A stretch of 64,000 nucleotides of DNA. Origin: a virus. Location: IMG/VR virus record IMGVR_UViG_3300031857_000027; one strand, given 5' to 3'. Both the position numbers and the translations under genes were made by a program. Positions 18,311-37,267 of the stretch are shown here, in pieces; within the stretch, counting starts at the first letter, position 1; each line of letters opens with the position of its first letter. A model generated the notes under the pieces. That model was not told the DNA's origin and did no database searches. It saw nothing but the letters and a program-made list of their open reading frames with translations.

Positions 18311-18744
18311 GGCTTCTTGGCTGCTTCGTTCAAAATGCTTACTACGTTAGAATCAAGTTCGCATTTTGCATCAATAACTTTTTCCACTTCTTTAATCTTT
18401 TGGACAACAATCTCTCGTTTTTCAACGACTCTCTTTGTTCTCTCTCGGATTTTCGTTTCGATAACAACATTTGTCTGCTGTGATTTCGCTTCTGCATCTT
18501 TTATTTTCTCCTCTAATTCAGCCACTCTTTGGCGCCATTCTTGCTCGACGCTATAGCCTCCTTTCCAGTATATACCGATGCAAAGTAATGCTATGGAAAC
18601 GTATTTAATAACGTTTGCATAGTTGCCAATAAATGGCAGTCTACTACCTAAAAAACCCAATACGGCACCAACGGCACCGCAGATTAAAACAGTGTTGATG
18701 ATGAATAAAAGAAAGCCCGATGGCAAAAAACTAAGAAGCCACAT
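18307..18744 (-). CDS. i-spanin-like membrane protein
   Basis: N-terminal TM plus periplasmic coiled coil. Confidence 0.7.
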   Translation of the reverse strand: MWLLSFLPSGFLLFIINTVLICGAVGAVLGFLGSRLPFIGNYANVIKYVSIALLCIGIYWKGGYSVEQEWRQRVAELEEKIKDAEAKSQQTNVVIETKIRERTKRVVEKREIVVQKIKEVEKVIDAKCELDSNVVSILNEAAKKP

Positions 18745-18967
18745 TTGACTTTCTCTTTATAAATGAAATGAATGTTGCAGTCTTACGTTTCTTCACGCCG
18801 GGTTCACCTTGTGGTCCTACGCCGACACCTGCAATTGCACCACCACCCACAGCGTTAGTGGGCGCACCGCCCATGGCTCCAGCATCCTCTTTGAGTGGTT
18901 TGCAGACTTTATCGGTGCTACACCAATAATAACCTGCGCCACATTCTTTTTTAAATTCGTTCGACAT
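18731..18967 (-). CDS. hypothetical protein (probable head-associated, starts MSNEF)
   Basis: LKE linker, then P.N.VG.G.IAG...GEPG motif; CATAAATA upstream. Confidence 0.55.
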   Translation of the reverse strand: MSNEFKKECGAGYYWCSTDKVCKPLKEDAGAMGGAPTNAVGGGAIAGVGVGPQGEPGVKKRKTATFISFIKRKSNVAS

Positions 18968-18983
18968 AGTTTTATTTATGTGA

Positions 18984-19712
18984 TTAGTACCCTGTTCCAC
19001 CCACATTATAGCCAGTATATACAGTCCACGATGTTCCTGTGCTATTTCCTACCATGACATAACTCTGATTGGCAGTGACGCCACGATTTGATGGCCCCAA
19101 ATCACCACCTGTCAATTTCGCTGTAGAACTATACAAACCAGAAATGACACCAACATTGTTGTTTCCTCTTGCTTGTACACCAACAAGCAATTCAAGCCAT
19201 GGATTACCCGCAGTCAAACTTGGATTGAAGAATGTCAATTCATACACCATGTTAGGGCTGCCCGGTGTACCTGATGTTGATGCCGTACCTTCCCAACGCA
19301 GTCTTCTATAATCTGTGCCTGAAGCAATTGTAGATACTCTTTGCCAAGAATTGTCAGCACCAGCAAAAAAGATTTTATTGAGTGCTGGATTACTTGCACT
19401 TAAACCATTGAACACAGTTGAACCAGAACCAAATGTTACATAATAATTTGAGTTTGGGAAAAAACTTGTATAACCAGTGCTGTTATATGTCCAAGTAAAA
19501 GGAAGTGATACATTTGTGTTAGCATCGTCACCTGTTGCAGATATGATAGATGTCCAACCAGAAGCAGGAAAAGGACTTTGTGCGCCAGCACCAAGAACGG
19601 GTGCTTTCGTTCCAACTTCTAATGTGTAAACACCACTGGGCAATACACCAATACCACCATTGACATCAATACCACCTGTTATTGTTATGCCTGGTCCAAT
19701 GATGATTGTCAT
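18984..19712 (-). CDS. Gly/Ser/Thr-rich putative virion protein
   Basis: Beta-rich composition; DD...V.LPF...Y...NSN.YVTFG segment. Confidence 0.55.
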   Translation of the reverse strand: MTIIIGPGITITGGIDVNGGIGVLPSGVYTLEVGTKAPVLGAGAQSPFPASGWTSIISATGDDANTNVSLPFTWTYNSTGYTSFFPNSNYYVTFGSGSTVFNGLSASNPALNKIFFAGADNSWQRVSTIASGTDYRRLRWEGTASTSGTPGSPNMVYELTFFNPSLTAGNPWLELLVGVQARGNNNVGVISGLYSSTAKLTGGDLGPSNRGVTANQSYVMVGNSTGTSWTVYTGYNVGGTGY

Positions 19713-20107
19713 TTTAGATTTCTGAGAACCTCTGCGACATTCATATCAACTGGTATTTCTGATGATATAATGTCTGTATTGTTGATGCCACGAACTTTTT
19801 CGGGCATGAGATTTAAAAACAACAAGTATGTTTTGAGTATACTATAGTCGTCTTTATTGGTATGATAAAACATAATTCTTGTTGATACTTCAGGACCAAA
19901 AATATTGTACAGAACAACAATATGATTGAGTATCAGACGCTCACGCATTTCACCATGTTTAGAATAACGTCTGAATAATCTTTTGAGATAATTCAATCGT
20001 TTCATGTCTTCAGTGAATTCACTCATAACGCAATTAGGCCTATCATAGGCCTTTGCTGCGTACAACATTATATTGTCATCGGTTAGATTCTCAAAAGACA
20101 TAATCAA
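19709..20107 (-). CDS. conserved T4-like phage hypothetical protein
   Basis: F.EDMKR..YLKRL...RERLILNH pattern. Confidence 0.65.
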   Translation of the reverse strand: MIMSFENLTDDNIMLYAAKAYDRPNCVMSEFTEDMKRLNYLKRLFRRYSKHGEMRERLILNHIVVLYNIFGPEVSTRIMFYHTNKDDYSILKTYLLFLNLMPEKVRGINNTDIISSEIPVDMNVAEVLRNLK

Positions 20108-20108
20108 T

Positions 20109-20130
20109 GAGGCTGCCCGAAAGCAGCCTC
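20109..20130 (-). terminator. stem-loop GAGGCTGC-N6-GCAGCCTC
   Basis: Perfect 8-bp GC-rich stem between genes; weak U-tract. Confidence 0.6.
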
Positions 20131-20745: not shown

Positions 20746-20753
20746 TATTTATG
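20746..20753 (-). promoter_or_regulatory. late promoter candidate (CATAAATA)
   Basis: 7/8 match to TATAAATA upstream of the 20717 start. Confidence 0.6.
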
Positions 20754-22368
20754 TTTTCTGTATATCGCTAGACAATTCGGGGTCTTTTTGAAACTTATCC
20801 GATGCCTGTTCTTGTTCTTGTTTTTTGCCCTTTGCGGCATCTCTAACAATCTGAGCCTTGCGTGATAGAGTTCTTGCTGCTGCGCTTGGATCGTCAGTGT
20901 TTTCACTCACAGACTTCCAACCACCACCCATTTCTTTGTATTTCTTCGCAGCCCAACCGTTAGCATATGCTGAAGGATATACATCAAACTTAGATTTTGC
21001 TTGTGCTTTAGCCTGCGCCCACTTCTCAGGTGATGTAGGCACATTCTTTTCTTCAAGATATTCAACATCTTCACCCATTGCTCTTTTTTGACTCTGTGTG
21101 TATTTTCTTTGTTTAACTGGTGACATAGATGCCATTGAAGCCTTTTTTCTGTCTCTTTCTACTGCACTATGATAACCACTTCTCAATCTAACTGCCTGAC
21201 CCAGATGTTCATCACCCGCTTCATCATGTCCTTTTGATCTGGCGTCTTTTCCTTTTTTTGTGGCTATTTTTGCAGCACGATCCAAAAGTGCAGGCGAAAG
21301 TTCATCAAGTTGTTCAGTCTCTTCTTTGACATGACCATACTTCTTTTTGTACCAGTCGGGCATACCACTCTTTTGACGGAAGTATCTTACTGTTGCAGAA
21401 TCGTTTGCTTGATCACGATATTTGTTTTCTGCTGTTGTATTATGGCTCTTCATTGCTTCTGCTGCTTTATGGGCATCTTTGGCAATATATTCCAATTCAG
21501 CATTCGTCTTCTTATGATACTCATGACCTTCTAGTGGATGGCGCTGTGATGGGCGACCTTCAGTGAGTTCAACTTCTTCTTTGTTGTATTTCTTTTTTAA
21601 ATACTTATCAACCTTGCGTTCGTATTCACCTTTTGGTTTCTTAGGAACAGGAGTGCCGTGTGGTGAAGGAACATATCGTTTAACTTCTTCATTCAGTTCA
21701 CCACGCAGATAGTTGGCTGCTGTAGAGATATAATCTTCAGCAAGTGTAATCTTTGATTGAACCCATTCTGGCAGATTTGTGTTTTCTTCCATCAAGTCCA
21801 TCATGTCTTGTGCATTGAACATCAGTGAACGAATTTGTGACATCGCCATATCACCTTCATAATCATACTCACGTGCATCTTTTGCTTCTTTAATTGGTGT
21901 AACAATCGTAGAAGACTTATATGGTTTTTTAACTGGTCCAGACACAAATCGTCCTTTCTTTTCTAATTGTTCATCAATCTCTGTTTCTTCAGAAACTCTT
22001 GATGCTTTCATGATACCACGAATCAGTGGTGCTTTGAGTTGCTTGTGTCTTGGAACAGCAATGTGTTCTTTTGACTTTGGATGCCCATATACATCATGGC
22101 CACCACCTGTGCGTTTCAATGTCCAACCTGATTTGCGAAGATGAGCATGAACATCACGTGTCTTCATGCTTGACTCTGGCATCTCATCAAGTTGTTCAAC
22201 TTCTTCCACTTTATATTTCTTTTTGATTTCAGATTGCTTCGCAAGTCTTTCTTTATCGTCAGAAATACCGTAAGAATGACCCAACTCTTTGTAATAGTCG
22301 GGATGTGGTAGTCCCGACTTCTTACGCAGAGCCATTTGTCGTTGATGTAATTTATCTGCGACTGACAT
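20749..22368 (-). CDS. modular putative internal head polyprotein containing a HicA-like toxin domain (22000-22167)
   Basis: Modules split by EEVEQLDE, EETEIDE, EEVELTE, EETEQLDE and EDVEYLEE; HicA pattern MKTRDV...L..SGW...R.GGGH..Y.HP......VP.H..L...L.R.IMK. Confidence 0.75.
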   Translation of the reverse strand: MSVADKLHQRQMALRKKSGLPHPDYYKELGHSYGISDDKERLAKQSEIKKKYKVEEVEQLDEMPESSMKTRDVHAHLRKSGWTLKRTGGGHDVYGHPKSKEHIAVPRHKQLKAPLIRGIMKASRVSEETEIDEQLEKKGRFVSGPVKKPYKSSTIVTPIKEAKDAREYDYEGDMAMSQIRSLMFNAQDMMDLMEENTNLPEWVQSKITLAEDYISTAANYLRGELNEEVKRYVPSPHGTPVPKKPKGEYERKVDKYLKKKYNKEEVELTEGRPSQRHPLEGHEYHKKTNAELEYIAKDAHKAAEAMKSHNTTAENKYRDQANDSATVRYFRQKSGMPDWYKKKYGHVKEETEQLDELSPALLDRAAKIATKKGKDARSKGHDEAGDEHLGQAVRLRSGYHSAVERDRKKASMASMSPVKQRKYTQSQKRAMGEDVEYLEEKNVPTSPEKWAQAKAQAKSKFDVYPSAYANGWAAKKYKEMGGGWKSVSENTDDPSAAARTLSRKAQIVRDAAKGKKQEQEQASDKFQKDPELSSDIQKT

Positions 22369-22370
22369 GA

Positions 22371-23519
22371 TTAGTCCTTCTTGGCCATTTTCGTTGCAGT
22401 TGCATACATTACCGACTTAGCACGTTCACCATAACGCTGTTTGAAACCAGAAAGACCTTTCTTCATACCCATTACGTAATCTTCTTTCTTCTTGGCTTCA
22501 CCTTTTGTTAGTTCACGTTCTTCAATTTGCTGAACACTTTCTGGCATTTCTTTTACACCAGTTGTCTTACCTGCTGCAACTTTTGGTTGTTTCTTTTTGC
22601 CTTCAAAACTTGCTTTTTGGTCTTCATACTCTTTTGTGAACTCATCGTTTGTTGGTTCTTCTGACAACGATTCTTCTTTACGAAGTTTGCTCATTACTTC
22701 GCCAGCCTTTTGTTGTTTTTGTGCTTGATATGCTCTCTCTTTTGAGATAACATCCTTTACCACACCAGCAGCACCTTTTGCAACATCCATAATACCTTCT
22801 TCAATTTCTGTTGCAACAACGCCGTTTACTTTATCTGCATCAATAACTTCAATCATTCTACCATCAATATCCATCTCTTCTGTTTCAATTGGTGCTAACA
22901 CTTTCAGACCATGCTCATTGTACAGTTCAAGCATCTCTGTGAATGATGTTGATTCGTTCACACGTGTTGAACGCTTAAAGTTTTGACGGGCACCATAGCC
23001 ACCCTTTTTCTTCGGTGCATCATCTTCATCATTGTCATCTTTGTAGTCACGCTTGTGAACTAGACCTTTTGCTGTCTTTGTGACTGAGCCATGTTCTGTT
23101 TTACCAGCATCCATGCGCTTCTTTGCATCTGCTACAGTTGGAAATGCTTCGTTCAGTTGCTCTTGTTCAGTTGCTTCAACTTCTTCGTTCTTTTTGCCAT
23201 AGAAGTTATCTTTGTACATGCGTGATGTTGCCTTACGCAGACCTTTTGTGCGATCTTTTGTCTTGTCGGCAATTGCTTTGGTCACATATGAACCAAGTGC
23301 TTTTCTGCCCGCTGGTGTATCACCAACTTCATCTAATTGCTCAACTTCTTCTTTCTTCATATCTTTTTTAGCACGTAGAAGTTTGAAGTCGTGAGCATCA
23401 ACTTTGCCATTTTTGTTGGCATCAATTTTATGCTGATTGCCTTTTAGTTGTTCTTGTTGTAGAACCTTTGCTGCTGCTTCTGCTACACTTTTCAGTGCTT
23501 TGTCATTGAAAATTGACAT
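22371..23519 (-). CDS. modular putative internal head protein
   Basis: EEVEQLDE, EQLNE, EIEE and QIEE linkers; EF-hand-like DANKNGKVDAHD; C-terminal RYG.RAKSVMYATATK. Confidence 0.65.
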   Translation of the reverse strand: MSIFNDKALKSVAEAAAKVLQQEQLKGNQHKIDANKNGKVDAHDFKLLRAKKDMKKEEVEQLDEVGDTPAGRKALGSYVTKAIADKTKDRTKGLRKATSRMYKDNFYGKKNEEVEATEQEQLNEAFPTVADAKKRMDAGKTEHGSVTKTAKGLVHKRDYKDDNDEDDAPKKKGGYGARQNFKRSTRVNESTSFTEMLELYNEHGLKVLAPIETEEMDIDGRMIEVIDADKVNGVVATEIEEGIMDVAKGAAGVVKDVISKERAYQAQKQQKAGEVMSKLRKEESLSEEPTNDEFTKEYEDQKASFEGKKKQPKVAAGKTTGVKEMPESVQQIEERELTKGEAKKKEDYVMGMKKGLSGFKQRYGERAKSVMYATATKMAKKD

Positions 23520-23544
23520 TTTAGTTCTCCTGATTTAGTTTTTG

Positions 23545-24855
23545 TTATCTTGTGACTTCTTCCCAATCCATCGATGCGTAGATATCAGAACCATTAACTG
23601 ATGCTGCCACGCATAATGTGAGTTCGAAGGGTGTATTGGTCAATCCATTTCTTTCTAATTGAAATTTGAATAGTGCTTCTCTAAGAATATCCACTGGTAT
23701 AGAACTTTGTGTAGTAGAAGTTGTAAAGCCCGATGCTAATATTCTTCCACCTGAAATTGTTGCGGCATCTAATTTATATTCAACAGCAGAATTAACTCCT
23801 GCACTTTCCCATGTTCCACCTGTTGTTGTACCACCCGCCCTGAGTTGCCAGTTATAATATGAGTTGTTAGTTAATGCTAATAAAGATAGTGCAGTAATAA
23901 TGACAATCGCATCTAATCTATCCGATTTCAATCTCAAAGAAATGAGATTATAATATGTTCCAGCAACGGCCAAATCAATTGGGCTAGTAACTGGTGTGCC
24001 TATGGCTTGCTGCGATCCAAGCAATTCATATCCACCTTCAGATATAACGGACGAGCAAATCTGTTTGAGTGTGGAATTACTTGCTGTAATACCTGTGTTC
24101 TTGATTTCATAACGCAACGGTAAAGATGCCGTTGTCATATAAGGAACAGTATTCCTATTGTCATTGTGAAATATGTGGGCAGGAACCATTTTACCATCAA
24201 CCACAAATCCACAGCGAACATCACCAACACCCAACCACTCAACATCCATCCAAAGAATATTTGTCTTACTTACATCAATGCCACCAGCATGTTCAGCACC
24301 ACCACTTTGAGATGAATAACCCGTACCGTCAAACTTGTCTATATTCCAATCTGTTTGTGCAACTTTTGTTTCTGTAATTGTTCCTGTTGTATTACTTCTT
24401 AGCACAAAATAGTTTGTTGTACCCTCATTCTCAAAATAGATACCGTTTTCGGCGCCATAATAACCAACTCTCTGACGAACATTTGCTTTAGGTGTTTCCA
24501 TAGCAAATGACGACATCATTAACAAAGACTTACCTGGTTGATATGAAAACACTCTTGTTGTTTCACGAATGACTTCAGCATTTGCTGTAGTTCCCACAGT
24601 CATCACAATCATACTTTGATTGTTTACAAAAGCATATGAACTATTTCCTGCTGTATTTGATGTTGACCACAGTCCGTTATCAGCAAAGCGATGTGTACTA
24701 TCAAAAAGAGTAAATGGTTGTGATAGACGAAGACGACCAAACGCATCTGTGATTGTACCAGATGGCGTAAGACGATCAGACATCATATTCACCTCATAAC
24801 GAGTGAATACTTGTCCTGAATCTATCTTATGTAAGTCGGTTCTAAACTGTGCCAC
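23545..24855 (-). CDS. putative virion structural protein (beta-rich)
   Basis: GTG start; DAFGRLR.S.P.TLFD and EWLGVG motifs. Confidence 0.6.
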   Translation of the reverse strand: MAQFRTDLHKIDSGQVFTRYEVNMMSDRLTPSGTITDAFGRLRLSQPFTLFDSTHRFADNGLWSTSNTAGNSSYAFVNNQSMIVMTVGTTANAEVIRETTRVFSYQPGKSLLMMSSFAMETPKANVRQRVGYYGAENGIYFENEGTTNYFVLRSNTTGTITETKVAQTDWNIDKFDGTGYSSQSGGAEHAGGIDVSKTNILWMDVEWLGVGDVRCGFVVDGKMVPAHIFHNDNRNTVPYMTTASLPLRYEIKNTGITASNSTLKQICSSVISEGGYELLGSQQAIGTPVTSPIDLAVAGTYYNLISLRLKSDRLDAIVIITALSLLALTNNSYYNWQLRAGGTTTGGTWESAGVNSAVEYKLDAATISGGRILASGFTTSTTQSSIPVDILREALFKFQLERNGLTNTPFELTLCVAASVNGSDIYASMDWEEVTR

Positions 24856-25350
24856 TTAGCAGTTCCACTTTCTCAATGCTTTATTAATACGTGAATCTGG
24901 ATCACGTGCTGTCTTTGCTGATGTTAGTCTACGCTTCATCCCACCCATTCTGGCGCAAAATGACTTACGACGATTTGCTGCCTTAGAACCTGCTTTTAGT
25001 TTACTTGGTTTCGTTGTCACAGCAGTTTGTAATTTTGAACCAGGATTTTCACGACGATATGACTCAACACCTTTTTGATTCAAACCACCTTCTGGATTTT
25101 TACCTTCTTTACGCTGCCATGCTGCAACTTCTTCTAATTGTTCTTCTGTAAGTGGACCATCATCGGCTTCATAATCTTCTTTTTTTAACTTCATCATCTT
25201 CGGCTTTGTGAATACAGGATTATCTGCACCACCAGCACCACCTTCTCTCTCTTCTCTTACGCATGAGCCTTTTGCATATGCTTTTTTACCCGGCGCTGGT
25301 TTATATCCAGGCCAACATCTTTCATCCATCAGTTGTTTGAATGATTTCAT
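24856..25350 (-). CDS. modular basic protein with CTS-like N-terminus (DUF6321-like C-terminal domain)
   Basis: MKSFKQLMDE; CWPGY; EQLEE linker; GGLN.KG...RRKSFCARM...LRKWNC. Confidence 0.65.
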   Translation of the reverse strand: MKSFKQLMDERCWPGYKPAPGKKAYAKGSCVREEREGGAGGADNPVFTKPKMMKLKKEDYEADDGPLTEEQLEEVAAWQRKEGKNPEGGLNQKGVESYRRENPGSKLQTAVTTKPSKLKAGSKAANRRKSFCARMGGMKRRLTSAKTARDPDSRINKALRKWNC

Positions 25351-28049
25351 ACGTAGTTTCTCTTTTTAAATGTTATAAGTGAGATACCTTTTTTCTTCAA
25401 TTCATCTTCTTTTTGATCACCAATTGATGCTGTCGTTTCATCACCAGTAAGTTCACTAATATTCTTAGGCACAACTTGTGTTGCTTTACCCTTTTTACTC
25501 AACTTCTCACCCATGTCTCTAGCAGGAGATTCACCAGCACCTGCCATTGAAATACCAGGTTCAATGCCTCTGTCAATCTCAGAAATTATTTCTCTTTCTT
25601 CGGCTTTCTTCTGGAAGTTTTCTTTGATGGTGGCAAGGCTGATGGTTCTTCTTCCTTCGGCAACGGGTTTGTCAAGGGCTGGTCGTTCTTTTCTTCCAGT
25701 ACCGGTTCTAACCTTACCGAGTTGTTGGGCTGACGGGGTGGAACTATTCTGTCCATAAAGTGCTTCAATCGCAGAATGATCAGGTGAATGTATTTCATGC
25801 AAGTCCTCTTTTAATTTAACAACGTATCTGTTACCAACTTTTGCTACTGTGCCATTTTTTTGGTGTGCTTCTTTTGCTGCTGAACCACGAATGTAAAACA
25901 ATCTTGTCTTACCGTTCTTGTCTGTCAATAACTTCTGTTTCTTTTGCGTTTCTTCAAACTGTTTACCAATTAACTTTGTGCCAGAAACATGTTGAATCAT
26001 TTTCCATGCTTCTTTGTGATTCTTGTTCGCAAGATGTTCTTTGAATTTTTTCTTCTGTTCTGGTGTAGCCTTCTGATGAAACTTCATGACTTCCATCATG
26101 CCAATGTTACCTTCATATGCCGCTTCACTGATCTTACCTTTGCCATAGTTTGAAACATTGATTGGCTCACCCTTGCGTTCTGGATTAGGATCATGGCGGC
26201 GTTTTGAAGCCACGGCAGCAGCACGTTCTTTCTTAGATAGTGATGCTCTCTTTTCGTTTGACATACATTTTGGTTTTGCTTCACCTGGTTCTCTGGCGCA
26301 AGGACCAATTGCTTCACCTTTGCTATTGATGCGCTTCCAGCCACCTTCTGGATCAGTTTTACTAAACCACTTACGTAAATCTTCTTTAATCATACCTCTA
26401 CCTAATGTCAGTAGATTGTAAGCACCAGCATCAGACATTGTGTTTACTTCTTCTTCCTCTGTCATCTCTTCTTCATCTGACTTGAGCAAACGAAGTGTGC
26501 GTGTGACTTCTTCTACTGTATCACCTGTAACTGATACTGTGACTGCTTCATTCATCTTGGCCATTTTGTTTTGATGTGTCTCAACAGTCTTTGCAATTTT
26601 CTCTACCGGCACTAAACTACCATGCACTGAACGATGTGTAACTTTGCCGTCTTTACCATAACGGCCAAAGCCATAATACTCTAGACCCATCTTGGACATA
26701 TCTTCATGTGTGCCAGCATCGGCATGTGGTTTCATATCAGTACGAATCGGTGCAGTATCTTTCTTACCCAACTCTGTAGCAATCCAACCTTTTGCCAAAT
26801 CATTCTTCGGTGGCTTGCCGACGAACTTTTGCATGTTTTTAAAAATGCCATCAAGTTCTTTTGTCTTTGCTTCTACAACTTCCGGTGCTGCTGTACGCAA
26901 ATCTTCTGAATTATCAAACTCAACATAGTTGTCACGAAATAGTTTACCAAACATTGGTCGTGCTGCTTGTACAGATTCCCATTTCTCTTTACGAATGTCT
27001 TCTGGCACTGTACGACCACCACGTTGACCACGTTCAATGTTTCTTTCTTTTGATACTTCGTCTGCTGTATTGACCATGACCATGGATGTTTCATAGCCTA
27101 ACTTCTCAAGCATCTCTTTGATCTTGGCATACTTTTCTGGATCATCACCAGTACCATTGATGATCAATCCATTACGACCATGAAGTGCTAAACGTTGACG
27201 CAATTCTGTAACGTTCTTTGCTCTTTTACGAACAGCATTACGTTGTGATTCTTCATTCTCTGGCATCTTCTTATCAAGGTTTTCTTTGTCCATCAGATAC
27301 TCAAGTGCTTTATCAGAATTGATTTCTGTTAGACCATGACCATCTAGTGTCTTGCTTAACACATAGTCTTTGCCTGAACCAGGACCACCACCTAGAAATA
27401 CTGCTTTGAAAATACCTTTGTCGTGTACACCCTCACGAATGATTTCTTCGTGAAGTCTCATACCTTTACGTACATCATTGAACATTTGCTTGACATGAGC
27501 ATGAGACATTGATGATGGTGCGCCTTTCTTGAATGAATCAAGATCGCCACTCTTTGCGTGTTCACGCATTTTAGAAGCAGAAATGCCAGTTACACCTTCA
27601 GCATCAGGATCACGTTCACCTGCTGAGTGTACTTTGATTTCTTTGAAGTTGAAACGGGCACCTTCATGTGTGCCATTGTACTTGTGTAGCAGTCTGTGAT
27701 ATTCTTCTGTGCGGTCAGAACCACCAACCATGTGAAGATGTGTTACACCCTTCTTGTGTAATGCTTCGGCATGGTCAAAGAATGTTGGTTTTTCTTTAGA
27801 TGCTGCTGTGAAATTCGTGCCAGAAAATGCTCTCTTGGCATGTTTGACTTTTTGATCTGCTGTAAGGGGATTCTTCTTGGCGTCCTGTGAATGTGACAGA
27901 ACGATATGATGTGAGCCGCCAACTTTATCGGCGATCTCTTTGACTTTATTGACTAGTTTTTCGTGACCGTTTGTAATCGGATTCATGCGACCAAATGCTA
28001 GGACGGCATGTTTCTCTTTCTGTTCACGTAGAAAATCTCTAAATTTCAT
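25347..28049 (-). CDS. 900-aa multidomain protein: cytidyltransferase-like (HIGH) domain, zeta-toxin-like P-loop kinase and several small modules
   Basis: FGRMNPITNGH, GSDR, ISASKMR; GGPGSGKD, NSD, INGTG, RGGR.VP; N-terminus MKFRDFLRE. Confidence 0.8.
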   Translation of the reverse strand: MKFRDFLREQKEKHAVLAFGRMNPITNGHEKLVNKVKEIADKVGGSHHIVLSHSQDAKKNPLTADQKVKHAKRAFSGTNFTAASKEKPTFFDHAEALHKKGVTHLHMVGGSDRTEEYHRLLHKYNGTHEGARFNFKEIKVHSAGERDPDAEGVTGISASKMREHAKSGDLDSFKKGAPSSMSHAHVKQMFNDVRKGMRLHEEIIREGVHDKGIFKAVFLGGGPGSGKDYVLSKTLDGHGLTEINSDKALEYLMDKENLDKKMPENEESQRNAVRKRAKNVTELRQRLALHGRNGLIINGTGDDPEKYAKIKEMLEKLGYETSMVMVNTADEVSKERNIERGQRGGRTVPEDIRKEKWESVQAARPMFGKLFRDNYVEFDNSEDLRTAAPEVVEAKTKELDGIFKNMQKFVGKPPKNDLAKGWIATELGKKDTAPIRTDMKPHADAGTHEDMSKMGLEYYGFGRYGKDGKVTHRSVHGSLVPVEKIAKTVETHQNKMAKMNEAVTVSVTGDTVEEVTRTLRLLKSDEEEMTEEEEVNTMSDAGAYNLLTLGRGMIKEDLRKWFSKTDPEGGWKRINSKGEAIGPCAREPGEAKPKCMSNEKRASLSKKERAAAVASKRRHDPNPERKGEPINVSNYGKGKISEAAYEGNIGMMEVMKFHQKATPEQKKKFKEHLANKNHKEAWKMIQHVSGTKLIGKQFEETQKKQKLLTDKNGKTRLFYIRGSAAKEAHQKNGTVAKVGNRYVVKLKEDLHEIHSPDHSAIEALYGQNSSTPSAQQLGKVRTGTGRKERPALDKPVAEGRRTISLATIKENFQKKAEEREIISEIDRGIEPGISMAGAGESPARDMGEKLSKKGKATQVVPKNISELTGDETTASIGDQKEDELKKKGISLITFKKRNYV

Positions 28050-28081: not shown

Positions 28082-28096
28082 TATTTAGTATTTAGT
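28082..28096 (-). promoter_or_regulatory. tandem late promoter candidates (ACTAAATA twice)
   Basis: Two overlapping copies upstream of the 28049 start. Confidence 0.6.
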
Positions 28097-34497: not shown

Positions 34498-34683
34498 TTA
34501 TTTTATGTCAGTTTCTTTCCAACTTCCTGTAAACTTTTTATATTGTTGTGTGCTTTGACCAGGAGTGTCATCAAGATATTTAGCAGTGAGTTCAGGTCTT
34601 CCCCACTCACCTCCGCCGGCCTTAGATACAAACTCTTGTCTGCTGTCTTTGTTTGCCTTTAAATAATCTTTGAATGTTTTCAT
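34498..34683 (-). CDS. small protein with CTS-like N-terminus (61 aa)
   Basis: Starts MKTFKDYLK at an ATGA overlap; G.GEWG...L...Y..DTPGQ. Confidence 0.6.
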   Translation of the reverse strand: MKTFKDYLKANKDSRQEFVSKAGGGEWGRPELTAKYLDDTPGQSTQQYKKFTGSWKETDIK

Positions 34684-35003
34684 ATCGTGAATGAAGAACC
34701 GCAACCACACGTTGCAGTTACGTTTGGATTTTTGATTGTAAATGAAGCACCCATCATATCTTCTTTATAATCAATCACCGCTTCATTCATGTATTGCATA
34801 CTCATACTATCTATAACAACTCCAATACCATCTCTTTCAAATGTAAAGTCATCATCTGCTGCCGGCAATTCTTCTATTGAGAAGCCATATTGGAAACCAG
34901 AACAACCACCACCCTGAACGAACACACGTAGTTTGAGTGAAGGGTCTTCTTCAGCAATGATAGATTTAATTTTCTTTACAGCAGTGTCAGATATTGTAAC
35001 CAT
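34680..35003 (-). CDS. erpA: iron-sulfur cluster insertion protein (A-type carrier)
   Basis: GGGCSGFQY and NPN....CGCGSSF motifs. Confidence 0.9.
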   Translation of the reverse strand: MVTISDTAVKKIKSIIAEEDPSLKLRVFVQGGGCSGFQYGFSIEELPAADDDFTFERDGIGVVIDSMSMQYMNEAVIDYKEDMMGASFTIKNPNVTATCGCGSSFTI

Positions 35004-35284
35004 TATCCCCTCGTCAATTGCAATACTTTTTGCATTTGTTTCTCAATAATTGGACCACGATTTGGCCAATGAATGTATGGTTGACTTGCTGTCTTGTACA
35101 GATTTGTCAGAAATGGCATAATGATCTTTTCTACTTGCTGAAGTCTTGCTTTATACTCTTCAACAGTTTCATCTTTCTCCGCAATGACTGCTTGATATTC
35201 AACTTCATCAACTGTGCTGAAACCAAAATCATCATCACCATACTCTGCTAAAATTTTATTGATGTCGTAACTCATTTGTCCCAT
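35003..35284 (-). CDS. hypothetical protein
   Basis: DFGFS...PFL.NL...YIHWPNR pattern. Confidence 0.6.
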   Translation of the reverse strand: MGQMSYDINKILAEYGDDDFGFSTVDEVEYQAVIAEKDETVEEYKARLQQVEKIIMPFLTNLYKTASQPYIHWPNRGPIIEKQMQKVLQLTRG

Positions 35285-36495
35285 GCCTTCTGTGCGTTAA
35301 AGTTTTGTCTGCTGAACTCAAGTCTATCTACCAGTTTCAATGCTTTACCAAGATGATCAACAGCAACGAAACCTTCTGGTGCAGTAATACGGAAGCCATC
35401 GTCAGTGCGAACAAATGTGCCAATGCTCTTGATAGTTTCCAACTTACGAATGATCATCAACTTAGCATCAACAATCAGATTCATTAGATCAAATATTTGT
35501 TTCAGTTGAATCGCATTTGAACGATAGAAACGCATCACTTCATTTTTCTCTTTGATGCGTTTTTGTTTTGTGTCTTCTTTCTTTGCTGCCAGAATTTCTT
35601 TGTTCAGTTTTGCTTCTACGTAGTTAATTAACTCTTGTGTATGAACTCTGGTGTCAGCAATCTTTTTGCCTTCACGAACTTTCGTGTTGTTGAATGTTTT
35701 GATCTGTGTAAGAAAAACATCCGATGCAGCAATACGATTCAATGTCAATGCAGGTATCGTGTTGAAAACTCTACCTGCGTTTGAAAGAATAGATGTGATT
35801 GCTGCTGTCTCTTCTTCAGTAAACGTGACAGAACCAGACGCATCAGTAAACGATGCATCACGAAACCAAACATCTTTTGTAGTCTTTAAATGACCAATAT
35901 CAATGTTGAATGATGCTTTCATTGTCTCTAATGTTTTACCGGAGTATGATGTGTGAAACACCACACCAATCTGTGCCGCTAACATTGTTTGTGCTAACTT
36001 TGATTTTACTGGCACAGCATATACGATTGTGTTTGGCTGAAAGATAATATATTCTTCACCCGCAATAGTTTCTTTTTTGATGTCGCCTTTGCTGAACATC
36101 ATGTCGCCTTGCAAAACACCTTTGATGCCCAACTTAGGCAAGAATGCCAATGCAAGTTTGAGTTTTTGATTTAAACCCTCACCAGGATGATTTTCGTCAA
36201 TGTCTTCATCAGTATAATTCAATTTTGCATTTTTTGCAAATACTGATTTCGTACCAACGAAAAATTTACCGTTTTCTGGATTTGTGCCAGCAAAGATAGC
36301 AGGCGCACCATCCCATTTTGTAGTCACATTTAATTTTGAGCCTGTGTGACCAGCAAGCATATTGCGTAAAGAACGGAGAAATTCTATTGCTTCACGTGCG
36401 CCCGATACACCGGCGTTTAATACATTATCTTCAAGATGTTCAAGGTGAACATTCTTGCCTTCTTTACTCTCTTTTATGTAATCCATGAATTTCAT
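35272..36495 (-). CDS. DUF6267-like protein, putative ligase/nucleotidyltransferase fold, CTS-like N-terminus
   Basis: HLEHLED; KWDG (motif I), QGD, EGFV (motif IV), KLVDR (motif V); starts MKFMDYIKE. Confidence 0.65.
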   Translation of the reverse strand: MKFMDYIKESKEGKNVHLEHLEDNVLNAGVSGAREAIEFLRSLRNMLAGHTGSKLNVTTKWDGAPAIFAGTNPENGKFFVGTKSVFAKNAKLNYTDEDIDENHPGEGLNQKLKLALAFLPKLGIKGVLQGDMMFSKGDIKKETIAGEEYIIFQPNTIVYAVPVKSKLAQTMLAAQIGVVFHTSYSGKTLETMKASFNIDIGHLKTTKDVWFRDASFTDASGSVTFTEEETAAITSILSNAGRVFNTIPALTLNRIAASDVFLTQIKTFNNTKVREGKKIADTRVHTQELINYVEAKLNKEILAAKKEDTKQKRIKEKNEVMRFYRSNAIQLKQIFDLMNLIVDAKLMIIRKLETIKSIGTFVRTDDGFRITAPEGFVAVDHLGKALKLVDRLEFSRQNFNAQKAWDK

Positions 36496-37259: not shown

Positions 37260-37267
37260 TATTTATA
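37260..37267 (-). promoter_or_regulatory. T4 late promoter TATAAATA
   Basis: Perfect gp55 consensus 28 nt upstream of the 37232 start. Confidence 0.75.

Follow-up and report, generated by a model that had tools for sequence, protein, structure and literature searches.

Modular polyproteins joined at [LIVM]-x-E as probable processed head cargo of an uncultured T4-like phage

The stretch of viral DNA considered here, hereafter the window, comprises 64,000 nucleotides (nt) and represents the reverse strand of bases 31338-95337 in the 133-kb IMG/VR virus record IMGVR_UViG_3300031857_000027, the completeness of which is estimated as ~75%. On its minus strand a head-to-tail run of five genes includes four open reading frames (ORFs) of 539, 382, 164 and 900 amino acids (aa), designated ORF539, ORF382, ORF164 and ORF900, whose products are strings of short unrelated modules joined at the tripeptide [LIVM]-x-E, while the fifth gene encodes a conserved virion structural protein of 436 aa. 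Comparison with related loci establishes both the modular anatomy of these products and the exchange of modules at fixed joints. As to their function, we consider it rather probable that they are processed head cargo, i.e., modular internal head proteins of the T4 type, made as polyproteins and cut at [LIVM]-x-E. The source phage is an uncultured T4 relative, for which cyanomyoviruses and Pelagibacter phage HTVC008M, all belonging to Kyanoviridae, are the closest cultured relatives.

The initial annotation of this DNA described the four ORFs as strings of short, mostly basic modules separated by acidic linkers, and the description was borne out with respect to coordinates, charge and spacers. 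Predicted modules are 23-295 residues long (28-90 residues for most), the majority having an isoelectric point of 9.3-11.3, with one acidic module also present in each long protein. Spacers are acidic, cover 5-7 residues with a net charge of -3 to -4 and in most cases carry [LIVM]-x-E on both sides. All linkers listed by that annotation were located, including the two copies of EEVEQLDE (Table 1), EETEQLDE and EDVEYLEE at aa 349 and 433 of ORF539, and, further, EEVELTE, EQLEE, IIRE, MNE, IKE and ISE, as were the N-termini MKFRDFLRE (ORF900) and MKSFKQLMDE (ORF164). Since both exact copies of EEVEQLDE differ in four synonymous codons, it is the peptide that is conserved rather than a DNA repeat. 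Within the whole 133-kb genome the strict EEVEQLDE-type motif is confined to ORF539 and ORF382. For its relaxed form E-x-E-x-[LIVM]-x-E, 81 occurrences were counted among 82,000 residues of the family versus 7.2 +/- 2.4 in composition-preserving shuffles (11-fold enrichment), and its rate in other ORFs of the same loci is 20-fold lower.

Only four modules have a family match in Pfam or PHROG (cytidylyltransferase-like, P-loop kinase, HicA and DUF6321). Pfam scans with ten single modules gave nothing above the cut-off, the best being a weak similarity of the ORF539 module at aa 441-489 to DUF5872, and the ESM Atlas search with ORF382 returned unnamed viral clusters only. With ORF539 as the query, more than 6,144 database proteins pass E <= 1e-5, and those that bear a name from their source are called HicA-like only. 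Structure prediction, proposed earlier as a check, was informative in part: in the AlphaFold2 (AF2) model of ORF539 confidence falls at the spacers and rises in four modules including an alpha-beta-beta-beta-alpha HicA unit, and overall confidence of the model is low, so that it was used for the pattern of confident islands and dips and not for fold searches.

The 436-aa virion protein, for which 155 relatives were detected in viral contigs, served as an anchor for collecting 80 syntenic loci with 52-99% identity to it. The cassette genes around it diverge far faster than the anchor itself; thus, in one locus (L008) the virion protein is 95% identical versus 30-54% for the four neighbouring genes. 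The same pattern of fast divergence is characteristic of internal-protein loci of T-even phages. Across the 80 loci, whole modules are inserted, deleted, reordered and shifted between neighbouring genes. The HicA module resides in the ORF164-equivalent of L008, in L014, L020 and L046 the module corresponding to aa 557-642 of ORF900 is found on the downstream side of the virion protein, and the module at aa 357-433 of ORF539 (Table 1) turned up in the ORF382-equivalent of L005, the virion protein of which is 99% identical. Homologues of ORF539 differ by unit-wise insertions and deletions, while relatives of ORF382, varying from 277 to 504 aa, differ by whole spacer-plus-module units. Members of the ORF164 family follow the plan "leader, variable modules, DUF6321" and range from 97 aa (leader and DUF6321) to 343 aa, one of them having HicA in the middle. 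Transitive BLAST yielded 220 unique cassette proteins, which were split at supported joints into 625 segments forming 140 module families; 107 distinct architectures were counted among the 146 multi-module proteins. HicA is followed by 12 different families, and DUF6321, always the last, is preceded by 11. The expectation that modules are swapped between persistent linkers was thereby upheld, module content being variable in the aligned homologues and the joints being kept.

The position of the joints was derived from the ends of strong local alignments between cassette proteins. Their right-hand ends fall exactly on Glu of [LIVM]-x-E in 17.7% of cases versus 2.4% for random positions, this Glu being the commonest right-hand end, in agreement with the earlier supposition that domain boundaries in homologues coincide with the linkers; left-hand ends begin 1-5 residues before the joint Glu because the joint itself is common to both sequences. 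With no motif pre-selected, alignments terminate in Glu in 34% of cases (7.9% in background), Asp not being enriched, and the residue two positions before the end is L/I/V/M in 31% versus 17.7%. At joints ending in Glu, this P3 residue is L/I/V/M in 55% of cases, the figure for the remaining Glu of the same proteins being 24% (odds ratio 3.8), with L and I most enriched. Tails specific to particular modules retain the first and the third residues of the motif, whereas the middle one varies, and one and the same tail may be followed by many different modules. Nine predicted P1 residues of ORF539 (Glu 62, 127, 133, 161, 227, 270, 349, 440 and 489) are all invariant in 37 homologues; homology breakpoints of ORF900 cluster at aa 194-206, 553-557 and 637-643. 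Moreover, modules internal in one phage open ORFs of their own in another, the starts coinciding exactly with the residue that follows Glu. As far as sequence can tell, the joints bear the signature of the phage's own gp21-type head protease.

This protease is encoded in the same record (G000:C1:19390-20040) and matches Peptidase_S77 at G000:C1:19429-19899 (PF03420, 1.5e-36, 122 bits). It adjoins gp22 and gp23 in a T4-type head module with the gene order portal, three small proteins, a fourth one of 120 aa, gp21 homologue, scaffold and gp23, the last being recognized with 2.1e-143. The gp23 of the phage contains I-L-S-E 33 residues before the conserved V-R-R-x-x-P-N-L, a spacing which we take to be that of the T4 maturation site (L-T-E cut). 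Proteases of the T4 type are known to cut after Glu, for instance at sites ITE-6 and LTE-619 of T4 Alt (PMC5694885; PMC9026906). The gp21-type protein begins with a nine-residue stretch ending in H-I-E, similar to the LIE-9 site of T4 gp21 (PMC9026906). Between the portal and protease genes (G000:C1:17937-19026) two other proteins were noticed: one of 219 aa, which starts with a CTS-like (capsid-targeting sequence) stretch and contains an acidic [LIVM]-x-E motif in its interior, and one of 153 aa with an acidic N-terminal half ending in the acidic motif and a very basic C-terminal half. Both are likely prohead core or internal proteins.

In T4 the CTS, MKTYQEFIAE, is sufficient for packaging (PMC8442874), its positions 4 and 7 being important for targeting, and 8 and 10 for processing (PMC9026906). 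By pattern comparison, the leader of ORF164 corresponds to that of T4 position for position (hydrophobic residues at 4, 7 and 8, Glu at 10), and the leaders of ORF900 and of the DUF6267 protein encoded further upstream (Table 1) do so with one residue missing. The leader pattern was found in 48 of the 75 cassette proteins encoded upstream of the virion protein (64%), in 3/133 downstream and in 19/834 other ORFs. The DUF6267 protein is a probable further cargo. Profile phrog_455 spans both DUF6267 and cytidylyltransferase, so they are fused in some phages. A pair of genes for these proteins is also present in HTVC008M, S-SSM5 and Stenotrophomonas phage DLP_6; CTS-like leaders are carried by both members of the pair in DLP_6 and by the cytidylyltransferase in HTVC008M, S-SSM5 and DLP_6. 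In the window, the DUF6267 gene is parted from ORF900 by an eight-gene sugar cassette, and a 107-aa protein (34680-35003, minus strand) with a match to the iron-sulphur cluster biosynthesis family PF01521 (2.1e-20) is encoded between this gene and the cassette.

Evidence for the virion comes from cultured relatives. Cytidylyltransferase T4-GC190 is a cyanophage core gene product detected in virions of S-SM1 (PMC3037559), and mass spectrometry of CsCl-purified virions of S-CREM2 revealed gp154, gp155, gp156 and gp160 (PMC10665884). Translation of the S-CREM2 genes showed that gp154 consists of a CTS-like leader and cytidylyltransferase, whereas gp160, having no leader, links at [LIVM]-x-E three modules homologous to aa 557-642 of ORF900, to the module that comes first in ORF164 and to aa 441-489 of ORF539. 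Thus, association with purified virions extends to a polyprotein of this family that has no leader.

Recognizable activities are concentrated in a few modules. ORF900 matches CTP_transf_like, Zeta_toxin and AAA_33 in Pfam, and a PHROG cytidyltransferase (1.5e-62) and phrog_727. The label "Zeta toxin" (50.5 bits, versus 43.1 bits for AAA_33) turned out not to be specific for its kinase module, to which adenylate and UMP-CMP kinases are the closest solved structures, zeta toxin giving a weaker match (0.0049). The HicA-like module of ORF539 is the sole HicA of the genome and retains the conserved Gly-x-His as G89-G90-H91, invariant in 37 homologues of ORF539. No match to the HicB antitoxin family PF15919, the one HicB family searched, was found in the 133-kb record, of ~75% completeness. 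The suggestion that the block is a toolkit of effectors is to be narrowed: the term "effector" fits three or four modules at most, and the majority are small basic peptides of unassigned role.

Targeting, cleavage, injection and the action of modules are inferred, and the following scheme would combine them. The locus would represent a hypervariable region that encodes T4-type internal head proteins as polyproteins, its five genes being probably transcribed as a single late transcript. N-terminal capsid-targeting leaders of ~10 residues would bring ORF900 and ORF164 into the prohead core, and ORF382 and ORF539 would get there by a route other than the T4-like leader. The gp21-type protease would then cut after Glu of [LIVM]-x-E at every joint, setting free short acidic spacer peptides, which would leave the head, while small basic modules and enzymes would remain with DNA and enter the host together with it. 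Among the enzymes so delivered would be a nucleotidyltransferase, a protein resembling nucleoside monophosphate (NMP) kinases and an RNase of HicA type. Cargo would be gained, lost or moved in spacer-plus-module units.

Several observations weigh against processed head cargo and have to be taken into account. The chief gap for ORF382 and ORF539 is that no T4-like leader was found in either of them. For the phage of the window itself, presence in the virion would be an extrapolation from the published data on cultured relatives, and the authors of the S-CREM2 study caution that abundant proteins may co-purify (PMC10665884). Cleavage at [LIVM]-x-E is predicted by comparing sequences; the motif is also encountered within modules and so alone is no predictor of cutting. 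In a coarse test (+/-2-5 residues) the enrichment of breakpoints close to [LIVM]-x-E was approximately equal to that around acidic pairs of any kind, and it is only the exact-offset and motif-free profiles that separate the two. Junction statistics count related sequences, and their p-values overstate independence. The mean pLDDT (predicted local distance difference test) score of the ORF539 model is as low as 51.9, and the match to a late promoter at the block is only near-consensus.

Other explanations differ in the step at which they depart from this scheme. The cargo may be packaged and left uncut, or deprived of the leader only, thus representing polyvalent multidomain proteins in which acidic stretches are flexible spacers. 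Polyvalent phage proteins of 2-15 domains travelling with DNA are indeed documented (PMC5512222), and the S-CREM2 data show presence only; a passive spacer, however, leaves unexplained the invariant Glu not replaced by Asp at joints, the L/I/V/M two positions before it along with the variable middle residue, and the motif bounding many spacers on both sides, and we regard this possibility as unlikely. A similarly low probability is assigned to the assumption that the proteins are processed in the head, while their modules are mainly structural, i.e., small basic peptides condensing DNA or forming the core, comparable to the bulk role of internal proteins and peptides in T4, rather than effectors. 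It agrees with the prevalence of basic modules of 28-90 residues lacking a family match and with the occurrence of the same spacer in the pair of proteins whose genes lie between those of portal and protease, and it is at variance with the fact that some modules are enzymes or an RNase of toxin type, their catalytic residues being conserved, and with the fast module turnover between near-identical phages, which suggests roles driven by conflict.

The block might also encode cytoplasmic mosaic proteins that never become part of the virion, linkers being recombination joints only. Conserved spacer-coding DNA could supply microhomology for illegitimate recombination, and neither a terminator nor a strong late promoter links the block to virion genes. 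Microhomology alone was rejected as the source of joints: many of them have no common spacer and share only a module-specific tail with residues 1 and 3 of the motif, and the copies of the spacer differ at synonymous sites. Taken together with the detection of homologues in purified virions and with the virion structural protein that the block flanks, this makes a purely cytoplasmic role very unlikely. Processed head cargo thus remains the preferred interpretation.

Table 1. Features of the polyprotein block and its surroundings (window positions)
Feature	Positions	Strand	Remarks
DUF6267 protein	35272-36495	-	Leader MKFMDYIKE; 385 bits
CTAAATA, two tandem copies	28082-28095	-	Late-promoter-like, near-consensus only; 38-45 nt 5' of ORF900 start
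CTS-like leader of ORF900	28023-28049	-	MKFRDFLRE, ends in L-R-E; homologous leaders conserved in relatives
ORF900	25347-28049	-	9-residue CTS-like leader, cytidylyltransferase-like module, P-loop NMP-kinase-like module, then ~six small modules
ORF164	24856-25350	-	CTS-like leader, small basic Cys-containing module, acidic spacer region, C-terminal DUF6321
Conserved virion structural protein, 436 aa	23545-24855	-	phrog_1645, 6.5e-137; not a polyprotein; synteny anchor
ORF382	22371-23519	-	~eight modules and spacers; no CTS-like leader
Acidic spacer EVEQLDE of ORF382	23328-23348	-	aa 58-64, within EEVEQLDE starting at aa 57; from sequence
ORF539	20749-22368	-	Nine modules, four acidic spacers; no CTS-like leader
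Acidic spacer EVEQLDE of ORF539	22183-22203	-	aa 56-62, within EEVEQLDE starting at aa 55; from sequence
HicA-like module of ORF539	21988-22182	-	aa 63-127, between two spacers; Pfam HicA_toxin PF07927, 35.3 bits (cut-off 27)
ORF539 module aa 357-433	21070-21300	-	Missing from 36/36 aligned homologues
Terminator-like hairpin	20109-20130	-	3' of the next gene downstream of the block

The five genes of the run (Table 1) are separated by gaps of -4, 0, 25 and 2 nt, and no terminator-like hairpin was found on the minus strand within the block. Late-promoter-like motifs, reported in the initial annotation to precede the block, are present as the two CTAAATA copies; as to the perfect T4 late box TATAAATA, none was found near the block, its sole copy in the window being at 37260. 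On both strands of the whole window ATAAATA is encountered 4 times versus 16.5 +/- 3.8 expected from shuffles, its scarcity fitting selection against stray late-promoter cores. The four copies all belong to the minus, i.e., coding, strand; those at 37260 and 20746 are situated 33-34 nt 5' of gene starts.

The 436-aa virion protein located inside the run appears different in nature from its neighbours. Its AF2 model (predicted TM-score 0.75) is all-beta, with the first 50 residues conserved yet modelled as disordered. The fold search gave low TM-scores and a generic similarity to ConA-type lectin sandwiches and to receptor-binding domains of phages, and the sequence search in PDB gave no match. 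Instead of residing inside the head, the protein may bind carbohydrates as a surface or fibre component.

Close to the block the window contains a DUF7207 gene (19709-20107, minus strand), which in S-CREM2 directly precedes gp160 (L085:6972-8236); this points to a conserved neighbourhood of DUF7207 and polyprotein genes. A 91-aa ORF (18731-19006, minus strand) belongs to the homology network of the cassettes (module families 11 and 20) and has an L-K-E joint, with a Cys-rich N-terminal part on one side and a Gly-rich part ending in a basic tail on the other; members of the cargo family may thus also lie outside the five-gene run.

Among known systems the closest analogy is provided by T4 IPI, IPII, IPIII and Alt, which share with the proteins described here a leader of ~10 residues of the same pattern ending in (L/I)-x-E (PMC9026906, PMC8442874, PMC5694885), a gp21-type S77 protease in the genome, small basic mature products and genes in hypervariable loci distant from the head module; Alt, being cut at both ends, demonstrates that enzymes can be cargo. 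No IPI, IPII, IPIII or Alt families were found among Pfam or PHROG matches of the block. T4 packs one protein per gene, cut once or twice, whereas here up to nine or more unrelated modules are united in a chain, an acidic spacer recurs, shuffling proceeds by units, two of the four genes have no leader, and the cuts are predicted from sequence.

Polyvalent proteins (Iyer, Burroughs, Anand, de Souza, Aravind 2017; PMC5512222) likewise combine many unrelated domains in one polypeptide, and for them delivery with incoming DNA and proteolytic release were proposed by analogy to polyproteins of RNA viruses; the text of that paper does not contain the words cyanophage, Synechococcus or HicA. Their release is ascribed to peptidase domains of the same chain, while in our case modules are much smaller, joints match the trans-acting prohead protease, and no peptidase domain was found by Pfam and PHROG in the four ORFs. 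In phiKZ-like giant phages (201phi2-1, phiKZ and SPN3US; PMC5694885, PMC10052503) a T4-related protease also cuts head-internal proteins after Glu within a three-residue motif, some of the processed ejection or inner-body proteins having several cut sites. There, however, the residue two positions before Glu is small (A/S/G/T) rather than hydrophobic, long propeptides are removed with one mature part kept, and a string of modules is not described.

Finally, the cyanophage cytidylyltransferase T4-GC190 (PMC3037559, PMC10665884) is equivalent to the first module of ORF900, and its homologues from S-CREM2, S-SSM5, HTVC008M and DLP_6 all begin with a comparable leader. The two papers treat it as a single protein possibly carried in the virion, and searches of them found no mention of a leader, a protease site or a polyprotein layout. 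In the literature we found no description of a capsid-targeting sequence or polyprotein cargo for cyanophages or other T4-like phages. The proposed mechanism is that of T4 internal proteins and Alt; what sets the present system apart is its organization as polyproteins, the recurrence of a spacer and the shuffling by units.

If this interpretation is true, many injected factors could be produced from a single gene, and shifting units between fixed joints could serve to rebuild the cargo. The recurrence of cytidylyltransferases and kinases in virion proteomes of cyanophages would be explained, the boundaries of each module could be tested against its predicted mature ends, and one explanation would cover a large share of the unknown proteins that abundant aquatic myoviruses encode. 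In T4 a short leader and one protease suffice to load foreign proteins into the capsid and to deliver them into the cell, and the natural joint and leader sequences found here would be of use for engineered protein delivery by phages. As a more tentative generalization, T4-like phages of lakes and oceans may possess a general plug-in system of capsid cargo, in which a targeting leader or a different entry signal would bring a chain of exchangeable modules into the prohead, the head protease would cut it at each [LIVM]-x-E joint, and one gene would give rise to many delivered products, including HicA kept harmless while fused and perhaps enzymes acting on nucleotides or RNA ends (DUF6267, cytidylyltransferase and the NMP-kinase-like protein) that would counter the defences of the host as early as the first seconds after infection begins.

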